Notes: generated from the letters alone by a model not told the origin. Counted from the first letter of the stretch, positions 21,320-40,814 are shown. The stretch is DNA of 64,000 nucleotides from an uncultured Chloroflexia bacterium (GCA_963728635.1 CAVSKR010000001.1:110116-174115); one strand, 5' to 3'. A program made the numbers and translations.

Positions 21320-21817
21320 ATGACCAAAGCCACGATCGCGACCGACATCGGCGACATCGAAGTCGAGCTGTACGACGAGTCGGCCCCCAAAGCAGCGAAG
21401 AACTTCATCGACCTCGCCACCAAGGGCTTTTACGACGACGTGATCTTCCACCGCGTCATCCCAGGCTTCGTCATCCAGGGCGGCGACGGTCAGTACGGCA
21501 AGAAGTCGTCCCTCGAGCGTGGCCGTGTCGGGACCGGCGGCCCGGGCTACAAGTTCGAGGACGAGCCGGTCAAGGGCGACTACCAGCGCGGCTCGCTGGC
21601 CATGGCCAACTCGGGTCCCAACACCAACGGCAGCCAGTTCTTCATCTGCACCGACGACCTCGCCGGGCGGCTGCCGAAGAACTACACGCTGTTCGGGATC
21701 GTGACCAAGGGCCTGGACGTCGTCGACAAGATCGTGTCCGCCCCGCGCGACGCGCGCGACCTGCCGAACGAGCCCGTCGCGATGACGTCGGTCACGATCC
21801 ATCCCGATCAGGGCTGA
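21320..21817 (+). CDS. Cyclophilin-type peptidyl-prolyl isomerase, cytoplasmic
   Basis: AAGGAG RBS; FHRVIPGFVIQGGD, AMANSGPNTNGSQFFI. Confidence 0.95.
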   Translation: MTKATIATDIGDIEVELYDESAPKAAKNFIDLATKGFYDDVIFHRVIPGFVIQGGDGQYGKKSSLERGRVGTGGPGYKFEDEPVKGDYQRGSLAMANSGPNTNGSQFFICTDDLAGRLPKNYTLFGIVTKGLDVVDKIVSAPRDARDLPNEPVAMTSVTIHPDQG

Positions 21818-23281
21818 CCGCATCAGGGCTGACCGCCGGACCGGCACGCACCGCGTCGATCGCCGCGAGGATCGCGTCGGCTGACCGATCGGCGTCGTCC
21901 TCGCGGGTGTTCCAGCCGGACACCGAGATGCGCAACGCGGGCGTTCCGTGGAAGGTCGTGCCGCCGAGCCAGAGGACGCCGTCGGTCTGGATCCGGTCGA
22001 TGACGGCCTTCGTCGTCGCCTGGTCGCCGACCGCGACGAGCACCTGGTTCAGAACGACCTCGTTGACGATGCGGACGTCAGGATGGTTGGCCAGCCGGCG
22101 GGCGATCCGTGACGCGAGATCGCAGCCACGCTCGACCATCTCTGCGATCCCGGTCGCCCCGAGCGACCGGATCGCGGCGTAGATCGGGAACGCCCGCGCC
22201 CGGCGCGACATCTCCGGCACGTACTCGAACGGGTCACGCTCCTGACCCGGCGCCGGCGGAAGGTAGGCGGCCGCCAGCCCCATCGACGCGCGGTGGGCCG
22301 CCGAGTCGCGGACGAAGACGATTCCGGCGTCGTACGGCACGTTGAGCCACTTGTGCGCGTCGGTGCCCCACGAATCCGCGCCATCGATACCTCTGACGAG
22401 GTGGCGGAGGCGCGGGCTAGCAGCGGCCCACAGACCGAACGCGCCGTCGACGTGGAGCCAGGCGTTCGGGTGTTGACGGACGGTCGCGACGATGCGGTCG
22501 AGAGGATCGAACGCCCCGGTGTTCACGTCGCCGGCCTGGGCAGCCACGATCGTCGGCTCGTCGCGCCCACGCAGGGCATCGGCCAGCGCACCGGCGTCCA
22601 TCCGGCCCTCGTCATCGGATGCGATCGCTCGACCCGACCACGTCCGAGGCCGGTGTACCGGAGCGCATTGAGGAGCGAGACGTGGACATCGTTGCCGACC
22701 ACGACCCGGACCGGCGGCGCGCCTTGCAGGCCCTGCTCCTCGACGTCCCAGCCGGCCGCCCGGAGGACCGCATGGCGCGCAGCCGCGATGGCCGTGAAGT
22801 TGGCCATCGTCGCGCCGCTGACGAAGCCGACAGACGTTCCGTCCGGGAGCCCGAACAGCTCCACGAGCCAGTCGGCGACCACCTCCTCGACGACCGACGC
22901 GGCCGGGGTCGCGAGGTACAGGCCGACGTTCTGGTCCCAGGCCGACGTCAGCCAGTCGGCCGCCAGCGCGGCGGGCACGGAACCGCCCATGACGAACCCG
23001 AAGTAGCGCGGCCCGCTGATCGCGATCAACCCAGGGTCGACGCCGGCGGCCAGCTCGTCGATGACCGTGACGGGATCGGTGCCGTCTTGCGGCAGGGGGC
23101 CACCGAGTCGGCGGCGCAGGTCGTCGGCGGTCAGGCCGGGCTGGACCCCGACACGACGGTCCGGAAGCGATGCGCGGTAATCGATCGCCAGGTCTGCGGC
23201 GTGCCGGAGGAGGTCCGGTGTCCCGGCGTCAGGATCGGCTGGCAACGTGGTCGTCGTCGGCTCGGTGGCGTTCGTCGTCAT
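21792..23281 (-). CDS. PLP-dependent group II (aromatic amino acid-type) decarboxylase; frameshift near 22620
   Basis: GPRYFGFVMGG, SAWDQN, FVSGATMANF; WLHVDGAFG, DAHKWLNVPYD in ORF 21792-22601. Confidence 0.88.
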
Positions 23282-23358
23282 GCCCGTGAACCCTCCCGGT
23301 GAGGCCCTCCGCCCGCACGAAGGTTAAGGAATTTACACTGTTCCGTATGCCAAAACCC

Positions 23359-23387
23359 TTGGAAAACGGCCCCTCGACAGGTAGGAT
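23359..23387 (+). promoter_or_regulatory. Sigma-70 promoter for the putative sRNA
   Basis: TTGGAA-N17-TAGGAT in an AT-richer intergenic stretch. Confidence 0.6.
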
Positions 23388-23393
23388 ATAGAA

Positions 23394-23570
23394 GCTGCTC
23401 AGTCAGCCAAGCTGCCCCAGCGTCAAGGTCATGGGTAGGTAGGGTCAGGGTAGTCGGTTCAGCCGACGTGATAGATGCTCTTGGCGCGTGGCAGAAGAGT
23501 CCGCTTCGGCGGGCTCCTTCACCGGGACAGCATCGAGGCGGCTCCTTCGGGAGCCGCCTCGTGTTTTATT
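23394..23570 (+). ncRNA. Putative structured small RNA (6S-like rod with central bubble)
   Basis: Own promoter and terminator, no credible ORF; GCTG/CAGC closing stem, CTGCC/GGCAG, GCGTCAAG/CTTGGCGC, GTCGGT/GCCGAC, cUUCGg hairpin 23497-23516. Confidence 0.65.
23535..23570 (+). terminator. Intrinsic terminator
   Basis: GAGGCGGCTCC-TTCG-GGAGCCGCCTC followed by GTGTTTTATT. Confidence 0.85.
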
Positions 23571-23607
23571 CGCGGGCGCTGTCGATCCGCCCTGCCCGCT
23601 ACGACAC

Positions 23608-24192
23608 TCACTCGATCGTGAGTGTGCCTTTCATGCCGCCCTGGAAGTGCTCAGGGAACGTGCACACGAAGGTGTAGCTGCCGGGCGCAGGCGCATCGAA
23701 GGTGATCTCGTCTGAGTCGTCCCCTTCAATGAGCCTTGTCGCCGCGATGATCCCGGGGTCCTCGTCGTCCAGCCAGTCGTTGTCGTCGCCAGCGGCGATG
23801 CCGTTCGCGAGGACGCTCTCCGCCTGCCCGGGCTTGACGAGGACCCAGTTGTGACCGACCTCGTCGTCCGGGATGGTGAGGTTGTTGAACGTCAGCGTGA
23901 TGATCGCGCCGACTGGCGACGTCAACGTGTCCTGCGCGTAGTGGAATTCCTCGGCGCCCTTCGCGGTGTCGATCGAGAGGGCGACCTCGACCGGTGGTGC
24001 CGGCGTCGGCGCGCCTGACTCGACCGGCGAAGGCGACTGCGTGGAGGGCGCTGGCGTCGACGTCGGCTCGGGCGTCGGCGTCGCCGGAGGCGGCGTGATC
24101 GGCACGAGGGTCGCGCCGCTGCAGGCCCCCACCAGCACGACGCCGAGCACGAGGACCAGGACCGGCCCGACGGACCGCACGGCCGGGCGCAT
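23608..24192 (-). CDS. Blue copper lipoprotein (auracyanin/azurin/plastocyanin family)
   Basis: VGAC lipobox, Pro/Thr linker, GHNWVL and CTFPEHFQGGM type-1 Cu ligands. Confidence 0.9.
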   Translation of the reverse strand: MRPAVRSVGPVLVLVLGVVLVGACSGATLVPITPPPATPTPEPTSTPAPSTQSPSPVESGAPTPAPPVEVALSIDTAKGAEEFHYAQDTLTSPVGAIITLTFNNLTIPDDEVGHNWVLVKPGQAESVLANGIAAGDDNDWLDDEDPGIIAATRLIEGDDSDEITFDAPAPGSYTFVCTFPEHFQGGMKGTLTIE

Positions 24193-25640
24193 CAGGCTGC
24201 GGCCGGCGACTCGCTGGGGCGTCCCCGATCCCGTCGCCAGTAGCGGCGCAGCAGGAACGCCACGACGATCAGGCCGACCGGCATGCCGATGGCGACGGGC
24301 AACACTCCGCCAGGGTTGGTGTTTTGGAACGGCTGGACCGTCAAGTGGATCCCGGGGCTCGTCACTGGCAGTGTCGTCTCACCCGGCGCCCCCGGTTTCA
24401 CGATCGCGGTCATGTAGACCATGTAGTCGCCGTCGAGGATCGCTTCGACCGTCCACGACTGCTCGGCACTCTCGCCCGGGTCGATCGCGTCCACCGCCTG
24501 CGTCCGCTCCGGGGACCAGTCCTCCGGGTCGACCGGATCGCTCTTCTTCAGGTTGATGATGTTCATGGCCACGACGAGGTCGGGTGACGCCACATCGGCG
24601 GTGTTGGTGACCGTCGTCGTGAATTCGATCTCGTCGCCCGTTTTGACGACGATCGCGTCCATGTCGATCTCGAGGGCGATGGTCGGCGGGTCCCCGACAG
24701 CGGGGAACGTGACCGCGGCCGCCGACACGGTCATGCCCAGGACCCCGCCGATCGCTAGGATGGCCGCACTCGTCGCGGCCAGGCCGGCGCCCCTCGACCG
24801 GCGGAGCGAGCCGAACACGCGCGGCGACCCACCCTGCAGCTGAAGCCGCGGTGCCGCGTACAGGAACAGGATCCCGACGATGACCGACGCCGCCACGATG
24901 GAGCTCACGAGGTAGGTGTAGCGCTCGCTCGGGGCGCGGTTGTTCACGATGAACTTCTCGAGGAACTCGCTCGTCGCCTGCATCGGATCAACCTGCTGGA
25001 GCGCATAGCCGAGCCCGCCCTTCTGCGCCTGACCCGGGAACTGCGTCGGGATGAGGAACAGCAGGTAGACGAGCAGGCAGACGAAGAGGCTGGTCCGGTT
25101 GGACCGGGACCACATGCTCACGAGGACACCGAACCCCCCGAACGCCATCGCCAGCAGGGTGCCCAAGCCGAACACCCAGAGCAGGGCCGCGCCGAGGATG
25201 TCGTCGCCTTTGCCGAGGACGATGACATACGGCAGGGAAAGCACCAGCGCCACCGGCCACGGCGAGAGGGCGGCAACGAACTTGGCGAAGACGATCTGCC
25301 GTCGGCTGGCAGGTGACAGGAGCAATGGCTCGAGCGTCCCGCGTTCTCGCTCCCCGCTGATGCTGTCGGCGCCGACGACGAGGCTGAGCAGGATTCCGAA
25401 CGAGATCGCAGACAGGAGCGTCAGGAACACCATCTCCGCCGGCGGGATCAGGCTGAGCTGGCTCTCGACTTCGCGCGCGATCGCCGTCGCCGACATAAGC
25501 ACGCTGAACAGGATCAGCAGGAACAGCAGCCGTCCACCGAGCCACAGGTCGGTGAGCTCCCTGCGCAGCATCAGCCACCACGTCGCGCCAGGTCGTGAGC
25601 CCGCGATCGGCTCTGCCGGGACGTTCTCCACGCCGCTCAT
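24192..25640 (-). CDS. ABC-2/NosY-like permease fused to an extracellular Ig-like domain and C-terminal TM anchor
   Basis: DSISGERERGTLEPLLLSP...KF; then beta-rich VKTGDEIEFTTTVTN...WTVEAILDGDYMVY and final TM helix. Confidence 0.8.
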   Translation of the reverse strand: MSGVENVPAEPIAGSRPGATWWLMLRRELTDLWLGGRLLFLLILFSVLMSATAIAREVESQLSLIPPAEMVFLTLLSAISFGILLSLVVGADSISGERERGTLEPLLLSPASRRQIVFAKFVAALSPWPVALVLSLPYVIVLGKGDDILGAALLWVFGLGTLLAMAFGGFGVLVSMWSRSNRTSLFVCLLVYLLFLIPTQFPGQAQKGGLGYALQQVDPMQATSEFLEKFIVNNRAPSERYTYLVSSIVAASVIVGILFLYAAPRLQLQGGSPRVFGSLRRSRGAGLAATSAAILAIGGVLGMTVSAAAVTFPAVGDPPTIALEIDMDAIVVKTGDEIEFTTTVTNTADVASPDLVVAMNIINLKKSDPVDPEDWSPERTQAVDAIDPGESAEQSWTVEAILDGDYMVYMTAIVKPGAPGETTLPVTSPGIHLTVQPFQNTNPGGVLPVAIGMPVGLIVVAFLLRRYWRRDRGRPSESPAAA

Positions 25641-40740: not shown

Positions 40741-40813
40741 GCGCCTGTAGCTCAGTGGATAGAGCGTCGGCCTCCGGAGCCGAAGGTCGCAGGTTCGAAT
40801 CCTGTCGGGCGCG
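40741..40813 (+). tRNA. tRNA-Arg (CCG), CCA not encoded
   Basis: GCGCCTGTAGCTCAGTGGATAGAGCGTCGGCCTCCGGAGCCGAAGGTCGCAGGTTCGAATCCTGTCGGGCGCG; -10 TATCAT at 40726. Confidence 0.96.
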
Positions 40814-40814
40814 C

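Follow-up and report, generated by a model that had tools for sequence, protein, structure and literature searches.

6S RNA is a long rod in which a closing stem and a long terminal stem flank a large central bubble; it binds the holoenzyme of RNA polymerase and serves as the template for short product RNAs. Ms1 of mycobacteria, an RNA of ~300 nucleotides (nt), is not known outside the Actinobacteria. Other structured noncoding RNAs are orphans of single lineages, among them the Chlorobi-1, Bacteroidales-1, Cyano-1, and Chloroflexi-1 motifs (PMC2864571, Table 1). Here we describe an RNA gene on the plus strand at positions 23359-23569 of a 64,000-nt stretch of DNA (hereafter the window, meaning the whole stretch that was analyzed) from an uncultured Chloroflexia bacterium (GCA_963728635.1, CAVSKR010000001.1:110116-174115). 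As judged from sequence comparisons, this RNA represents a new family, in that it matches no described RNA family; the claim of newness concerns the family rather than the mechanism. An original prediction made from the window alone had proposed that a small structured RNA, free-standing and equipped with a promoter and a terminator of its own, is encoded at this locus, a proposal that conservation, covariation, and RNA contigs now back.

With 6S RNA, the RNA shares abundance, a single copy per genome, near-universal presence in its lineage, a non-coding nature, pairing between its 5' and 3' parts, and a large internal loop. It differs from 6S RNA in its three-way junction, in having 6 base pairs (bp) in the helix beyond the loop, and in a shortest form of ~104 nt, as well as in a loop that is G-rich and invariant on one side and in possessing its own intrinsic terminator. 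The likeness to Ms1 is one of concept: an abundant RNA, peculiar to one lineage, that takes the place of an absent 6S. Nearest in kind are the orphan motifs named above, which are likewise free-standing, conserved, structured, and confined to one lineage, with function not assigned. Those motifs all have Rfam models, none of which matches here, whereas the RNA described here shows evidence of very high expression and carries an unusual invariant G-tract loop.

The RNA locus is intergenic and lies between two minus-strand genes, as the original prediction stated. Of 107 distinct public loci, 90 carry the arrangement TTGNNN-N16-18-TANNNT upstream of the RNA, compared to 8 of 4037 control segments taken from flanking DNA; TANNNT is the form that -10 boxes take in high-GC genomes. 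The TTGGAA-N17-TAGGAT promoter that had been predicted for the window is present in this arrangement. A generic promoter scan left the site unreported because it matches 8 of the 12 consensus positions and the threshold of the scan was 9. TAGGAT is followed by some 170 nt of G+C-rich sequence and by an intrinsic terminator with the tail TGTTTTAT. This is the sole terminator-like site in positions 22800-24200 (0.4 +/- 0.6 in shuffles). Its position is conserved, its stem covaries, and in 102 of the 107 loci the RNA is followed by a terminator-like hairpin whose tail is T-rich. The UUCG-capped terminator with its U-rich tail had thus been recognized correctly, although its perfect stem is one pair longer than the 11 bp claimed. 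Likewise, the claim that no credible open reading frame (ORF) exists is upheld: the locus is predicted to be non-coding for protein, since homologs vary by insertions and deletions of 1-3 nt and by compensatory changes, and since the plus-strand ORFs of the region (30-75 aa) extend into unconserved DNA.

Ten runs recorded as RNA contain part of the stretch, and contigs from four metatranscriptomes, generated in four studies of soil, sediment, and ice habitats, were aligned at a likeness of at least 85%. Summed contig depth in bins across 23394-23569 reached 29571 (run X11), 530 (X1), and 63 (X3), compared to 0-12 in the flanks, where depth serves as a contrast only and is no proof of silence. 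This contrast is good evidence of expression, and by the rough measure of depth the RNA is abundant, as 6S RNA is. The ends of the contigs are to be taken as hints. Transcription proceeds on the plus strand from the RNA's own promoter at ~23394 and ends at the intrinsic terminator at ~23564. Specifically, an X3 contig (188 nt, depth 25.6) fuses position 23564 directly to 23394, which places the 5' end 7 nt past the -10 hexamer, at the start that had been predicted, and the 3' end inside the U tail. This head-to-tail joint may be a ligation product of library preparation, or it may reflect molecules that are circular or concatenated. A contig from X1 comprises an insert of 23412-23530 with sequencing adapter at both sides; further contig ends that abut adapter fall at 23402, 23409, and 23411, and three X1 contigs end in this way at 23530. 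Adapter-abutted ends that lie at most one or two bases away from either end of P1, the closing helix, suggest trimming to a core of ~120 nt. Collectively, these observations hint at a mature form of ~120 nt with ends at ~23411 and ~23531 that form P1.

Homologs of the RNA were sought among five families, denoted f1 to f5, of a class identified as Limnocylindria from the titles of public records, with f1 being the family of the window. Of 61 relatives searched by BLAST, 56 contained the stretch. It was present in 31 of 36 genomes of the genus at 83-94% identity over ~215 nt, and in f2, a second family of the same order with genomes of 1.0-1.4 Mb, a core of 62-68 nt was kept in all 24 genomes examined (86-91% identity). 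Within the order, a covariance model (R1) recovered the RNA from 141 of 151 genomes, representing 26 of 28 genera, and nearly always as a single copy; among genomes as small as ~1 Mb, 40 of 42 carry it. Two full-length copies on separate contigs were observed in a few genomes of the genus (G010, contigs C14 and C16; G124, contigs C2 and C3), and these may be true duplicates or assembly redundancy.

When sampled across the class, the RNA was detected in f1 (42/44), f2 (6/6), and f4 (47/50, or 45/48 when the unpublished genomes G260 and G242 are excluded), with no detection in f3 (0/49) or f5 (0/1). No other result depends on those two unpublished genomes. A broader model (R2) applied to five f3/f5 genomes also yielded no match (best E = 0.96), and in a sample of the phylum it matched in f1, f2, and f4 only, plus one marginal case among 136 genomes outside the class. 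The exact G-rich pattern of the internal loop was found in 40 of 46 Limnocylindria compared to 1 of 355 other Chloroflexota; a control with the pattern reversed matched once in 401 genomes, and the collection of viral contigs that was scanned gave 0 matches to the pattern. The marginal case (R2, 25 bits) comes from another Chloroflexota family (G280:C161:4156-4176, minus strand; loci L273/L274), where the exact 21-nt G-rich string is followed by a hairpin. This string lies antisense in codons 5-12 of an ORF for a 237-aa membrane protein that belongs to no Pfam family and has no homolog in the genome of the window. We rejected this match as a true homolog and take it as chance, because the reversed-pattern control also matched once. 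A scan of one genome per species returned at least 120 stretches, and among the 80 matches listed all but a few were titled Chloroflexota, Chloroflexia, or Candidatus Limnocylindria/Limnocylindrales. Public records that bear the RNA were titled from soils, fens, lakes, and sediments. On the evidence of these genome searches, the RNA is specific to three families (f1, f2, and f4) of the class Limnocylindria, phylum Chloroflexota.

A 186-nt stretch of the locus folds at -89.0 kcal/mol compared to -71.4 +/- 3.8 for shuffles (z = -4.7), with none of 200 shuffles equally stable. The minus strand folds with z = -4.8, and since both strands are similarly stable, folding energy alone cannot choose between them. 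The plus strand is taken as the RNA strand because G-U pairs, which make up 269 of 2560 cells in the pair table of a 93-row alignment, would become A-C mismatches on the other strand. Alignments, RNAalifold, and pair counts agree, and they show the core to be a three-way junction of P1, a long arm (P2, an asymmetric internal loop, and P2b), and a variable P3. Among 100 public loci (93 distinct) that lay outside model building, 94.9% of cells were paired, compared to 78.4% in shuffles and 27-45% when partners were slid, and 25 of 29 pairs were changed on both sides. Alignment A4 gave 94.8% of cells paired, again with 25 of 29 pairs changed on both sides.

P1 is paired in 100% of cells on alignment A2; its outer pair alternates among G-C, A-U, and G-U, the second family shows changes from C-G to U-A, and the minimum free energy (MFE) folds of the 171-nt and 121-nt forms both contain it. 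In P2, 8 of 9 modeled pairs are changed on both sides, and two genera have a perfect 9-bp inner P2 that lengthens the helix through CAU/AUG. The apical hairpin P2b occurs with a GAAA tetraloop in f4. The main helix of P3 is paired in 97.5% of cells and all 5 of its pairs are changed on both sides; P3 is absent in f4, where the form spans only ~104 nt from P1 to P1. Upstream of the core, the stems of a 5' hairpin change between genera yet stay complementary (GCUGA/UCAGC, GUCGC/GCGAC, and CUGCG/CGCAG). In the ~1-Mb genomes of f2 (L031-L049), the P3 loop is an invariant 10-nt UGACUUGUUC on a covarying stem, and CUUGUUCG, a part of this loop, recurs near the 5' end of the same RNA; in the genus of the window, the P3 loop is variable.

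The helices GCGTCAAG/CTTGGCGC and GTCGGT/GCCGAC and the cUUCGg hairpin, all of which the original prediction had named, are confirmed by covariation. The rod with a central bubble into which they had been assembled is not, as the fold supported by covariation is a three-way junction. In that rod, GCTG at 23394 was paired with CAGC at 23531. Our alignments instead pair CAGC at 23531 with the second GCTG (23411), and the first GCTG most likely pairs locally with CAGC at 23404-23407.

The 5' side of the internal loop is G-rich, and every G of GGG-UA-GG-U(N)-GGG-UNA-GGG is invariant among 65 distinct core sequences from the three families. This side varies solely at 23441 (0-2 nt, which with the preceding U forms a linker of 1-3 nt) and at 23446. 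Variant letters in the RNA contigs fall in helices and hairpin loops, with none in the G tracts. Such invariance is what one would expect of G tracts that make up the functional core. Many RNA contigs from two runs start at 23449/23450, the 3' edge of the last G tract; these starts could mean that a stable structure blocked reverse transcription, or they could be no more than assembly breaks.

We compared the RNA to the 4227 models of Rfam. At gathering thresholds, the whole window yielded two tRNAs and nothing for the RNA. A permissive scan (E <= 10) of the 401 nt at 23250-23650 returned four chance-level hairpin or terminator matches (13.9-15.5 bits compared to gathering thresholds of 35-100), and the same scan of six homologous loci returned nothing. 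The 6S model (RF00013, gathering 46.4 bits) had no match in the window, in 23250-23650 at E <= 10, or genome-wide. Canonical 6S was detected in 0 of 151 genomes of the class, including 0 of 49 in f3, yet the same model found it in 34 of 136 other Chloroflexota, among them all members sampled of some families (9/9, 5/5, and 4/4); many other Chloroflexota families are also without detectable 6S.

Membership in the 6S family, to which one of two alternatives in the original prediction (a 6S/Ms1-like decoy) pointed, was rejected on this lack of a match together with a junction in place of a rod, the 6-bp helix beyond the loop, and the ~104-nt form of f4 that dispenses with P3. Membership in Ms1, named in the same alternative, was rejected as well, given no Rfam family beyond chance, a transcript of 171 nt, and a host placed in the Chloroflexota by the record titles of its relatives. 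The second alternative, a new class of small RNA (sRNA), fits best, and no Rfam family matches. The prediction had also named as checks an Rfam comparison to 6S, covariation among homologs, and detection of a transcript. Of these, the first was run and gave no 6S match; the second is provided by the doubly changed pairs in 93 distinct sequences, and the third by metatranscriptome contigs that cover 23394-23569 and barely the flanks.

Other candidate identities were considered and were rejected or judged unlikely. Signal recognition particle (SRP) RNA, ribonuclease (RNase) P RNA, transfer-messenger RNA (tmRNA), and 5S rRNA are all located elsewhere in the genome and none matches the region; the genome's own 5S sequence bears no resemblance to the RNA. 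A CsrB/RsmX-type sponge is not supported, as rsmX scored 15.5 bits against a gathering threshold of 56, the repeats resemble GGGUAG and not GGA, and no CsrA was found. For a bacterial Y RNA (YrlA-like), neither a TROVE (Ro60) domain nor an Rfam match was found. For a base-pairing sRNA dependent on Hfq, neither an Hfq domain nor a complementary genomic site at <= 4 mismatches was found. The searches for TROVE/Ro60, Hfq, and CsrA domains were made in a genome that is 94% complete, such that their absence is unproven. Literature on noncoding, 6S, structured, or G-quadruplex RNA of Limnocylindria and Chloroflexota yielded no description of this RNA in the texts covered, and in a preprint on structured RNA covariation the sole passage on Chloroflexota concerns tandem-repeat arrays.

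We propose that the product of the locus is a stable and abundant RNA that acts in trans, and that its invariant G-rich loop is folded and serves to bind a conserved partner, a reading to which we assign about an even chance when the reality of the gene and the mechanism are taken jointly. The G-rich loop would fold into a compact, non-Watson-Crick module that serves as the working site, and through this module the RNA would bind a conserved cellular partner, most likely a protein. Acting in trans, it would be a housekeeping ribonucleoprotein or a decoy, as opposed to an RNA that pairs with mRNAs or a switch of a downstream gene. The suggestion that G-rich repeats sequester a protein, which the original prediction had also raised, is plausible.

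Several points weigh against this proposal. The search of candidate protein families (TROVE, Hfq, and CsrA) identified no binding partner. Assembled contigs give neither strand, true level, nor exact ends, the depth over the core sums many related species, and the head-to-tail joint is one contig from one run. The alignments from which covariation was counted were fitted to the structure of the model and hence lean toward it. Furthermore, the 5' segment of P1 has two competing partners that are nearly as well paired. One is CUGCC/GGCAG (97.8% paired compared to 97.6% in shuffles), a helix of the original prediction that is complementary but shows no covariation and competes with a better supported helix; the other is GCUGC/GYGGC, as drawn by RNAalifold (93.6% compared to 90.8% in shuffles). 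In f4, P1 is uncertain because its segments are invariant, and its forced alignment there is not countable as support. Lastly, among 60 loci, one of them the window's own, 42 are followed on the same strand by tRNA-Arg(CCG), a linkage that would also be in line with a function connected to the operon of this tRNA.

The alternative that survives best, although we consider it improbable, is that the RNA is a functional analog of 6S/Ms1, i.e., an abundant RNA that binds and restrains RNA polymerase and that replaces canonical 6S in this lineage. The distribution of the 6S model argues for it, since canonical 6S goes undetected in the genome of the window and across the class, yet is found in other Chloroflexota, as does an RNA that is abundant, single-copy, and near-universal even in ~1-Mb genomes. 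Ends that are apparently trimmed to the closing helix and a large internal loop between helices are also in line with such a role. Against these stand the lack of likeness to the 6S model even at E <= 10 and the architecture of the RNA, with its three-way junction, its short helix beyond the loop, and the f4 form that lacks P3; a form of this kind is too short to mimic promoter DNA on both sides of the bubble. Moreover, f3 is without this RNA as well as without detectable 6S, and with many other families also lacking 6S, its absence is not specific to carriers of the RNA.

Slightly less probable still is a sensor RNA whose four G tracts (of 3, 2, 3, and 3 G) come together as a G-quadruplex that may leave one guanine position vacant and that responds to K+ or to a guanine compound; the response would alter the binding of the RNA or read-through into a downstream tRNA. 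Quadruplexes with a guanine vacancy are known, and the aptamers of the Mango and Spinach type are laboratory-selected G-quadruplex RNAs that, like the RNA described here, place a short segment rich in G tracts between or atop ordinary helices. They differ in being artificial, whereas the quadruplex in this RNA is hypothetical. The positions that vary among the 65 sequences, i.e., the 1-3-nt linker and one middle base, fall at the would-be loops of a quadruplex, the degree of invariance is that known from ligand-binding aptamers, and the contig starts at 23449/23450 fit a block to reverse transcription, as they equally fit assembly breaks. However, ViennaRNA with its G-quadruplex energy term predicted no quadruplex in the RNA of the window or in six homologs. 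The second tract, at two G only, rules out a regular three-layer form, and the UA between the first two tracts and the U after each tract are invariant too, which a plain quadruplex does not need. Neither a ligand nor a regulated gene is evident, with nothing downstream on the same strand in the genus of the window. A more elaborate version is speculative and quite unlikely, namely that this is a natural G-quadruplex RNA expressed at housekeeping level, whose vacant guanine site is filled or stabilized by K+ or a guanine nucleotide and which would act as a sensor in trans, possibly as a gate on RNA polymerase or on some other core machine, canonical 6S having been lost from the lineage.

It is very unlikely that the RNA is a base-pairing regulatory sRNA with the G-rich loop as its seed for C/U-rich sites in mRNAs. 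An invariant stretch drawn single-stranded between helices is reminiscent of the seeds of known sRNAs, and a free-standing gene with a terminator fits as well. Nevertheless, no site complementary to the 21-nt stretch at <= 4 mismatches was found elsewhere in the genome, where the stretch matched the RNA itself and two partial look-alikes in the same sense, and the failure to find Hfq in the 94%-complete genome also argues against it. Conservation also extends to part of the loop's other side, which points to a folded motif, and very high abundance with trimming to a closed helix would be unusual for sRNAs of the seed type.

The linkage to tRNA-Arg(CCG) holds in 19 of 19 loci of f2, 17 of 20 of f4, and 6 of 20 from other genera of f1. 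In some f2 loci, the terminator stem and the tRNA are only ~17 nt apart, such that transcription of the tRNA by read-through is likely at those loci. Despite the distance to the tRNA in the window, the RNA is retained there in full together with its promoter and terminator, and the old linkage has apparently been broken by insertion or rearrangement in this genus. Protein neighbors with Pfam support differ between families (DUF885, a phosphonate-binding protein, and an HD domain), and clustering of ORFs around 88 loci gave no conserved protein neighbor, the clusters being swamped by spurious stop-to-stop frames of high GC. A riboswitch or other cis-regulatory leader would precede its target gene on one strand and carry an expression platform in competition with its aptamer; in this RNA, P1 and the terminator are adjacent without overlap. 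A cis leader or processing element of the tRNA-Arg(CCG) operon, for expression or maturation of the tRNA, draws support from this linkage and from gaps that leave no room for a separate promoter, but is the least probable reading of all, given a complete RNA gene in the window and in the other loci of the genus that were read, at none of which the tRNA is adjacent, a complementarity between loop and tRNA that is unremarkable (-13.0 kcal/mol compared to a mean of -17.0 +/- 3.7 for 50 tRNAs), and two f3/f5 genomes with no such element upstream of the same tRNA.

Table 1. Features of the RNA locus, its structural elements, and its surroundings in the window.
Feature	Position	Strand	Description
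-35-like hexamer TTGGAA	23359-23364	+	Read in sequence
-10-like hexamer TAGGAT	23382-23387	+	17-nt spacer after -35; ends 7 nt before the 5' end at the contig joint
Primary transcript	23394-23564	+	171 nt; from head-to-tail contig joint
5' hairpin	23394-23407	+	GCUG, 6-nt loop, CAGC; in MFE fold; present in f1 and f4, missing in f2
P1, 5' strand GCUGCCCC	23411-23418	+	Partner 23524-23531
P2, 5' strand GCGUCAAGGUCAU	23420-23432	+	Partner 23475-23487
Internal loop, 5' side GGGUAGGUAGGGUCAGGGUA	23433-23452	+	20 nt; G tracts of 3, 2, 3, 3
P2b apical hairpin GUCGGU-UCA-GCCGAC	23453-23467	+	100% of cells paired; 5/6 pairs changed on both sides
Internal loop, 3' side GUGAUAG	23468-23474	+	7 nt; partly conserved, less strict than 5' side
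P2, 3' strand AUGCUCUUGGCGC	23475-23487	+	Partner 23420-23432
P3 hairpin	23494-23520	+	Inner stem GAGUCCGC/GCGGGCUC, UUCG loop; cUUCGg hairpin of the original prediction; covaries strongly
P1, 3' strand GGGACAGC	23524-23531	+	Partner 23411-23418
Intrinsic terminator	23534-23569 (stem 23534-23561)	+	12 perfect bp, UUCG loop, tail UGUUUUAU
PLP-dependent decarboxylase, C-terminal part	21792-22601	-	Pfam match
PLP-dependent decarboxylase, N-terminal part	22523-23281	-	Pfam match
Cupredoxin gene	23608-24192	-	Downstream neighbor
tRNA-Arg(CCG)	40741-40814	+	17 kb downstream of the RNA

Two features of the surroundings of the RNA were also observed. The gene for the pyridoxal phosphate (PLP)-dependent decarboxylase is split over two overlapping ORFs in different frames that hold the halves of one Pfam domain, which points to a putative frameshift, either real or an assembly error. 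An A/T-rich block, AAGGAATTTACAC, at 23322-23340 (+), ~20 nt before the -35 hexamer, is near-invariant within the genus, and a similar AAAGGAATCTTAG is present at the same place in f4. This block could be an UP-like element, a site for a regulator, or the -10 element of the divergent gene.

The Limnocylindria are uncultured Chloroflexota. In three of their families, almost all genomes, even those of ~1 Mb, carry one copy of this RNA, and few stretches are covered more deeply in environmental RNA data. The four invariant G tracts in its internal loop are unlike the cores of known housekeeping RNAs. Collectively, a near-universal single copy and deep coverage suggest that the RNA is likely to have a central role in these organisms.

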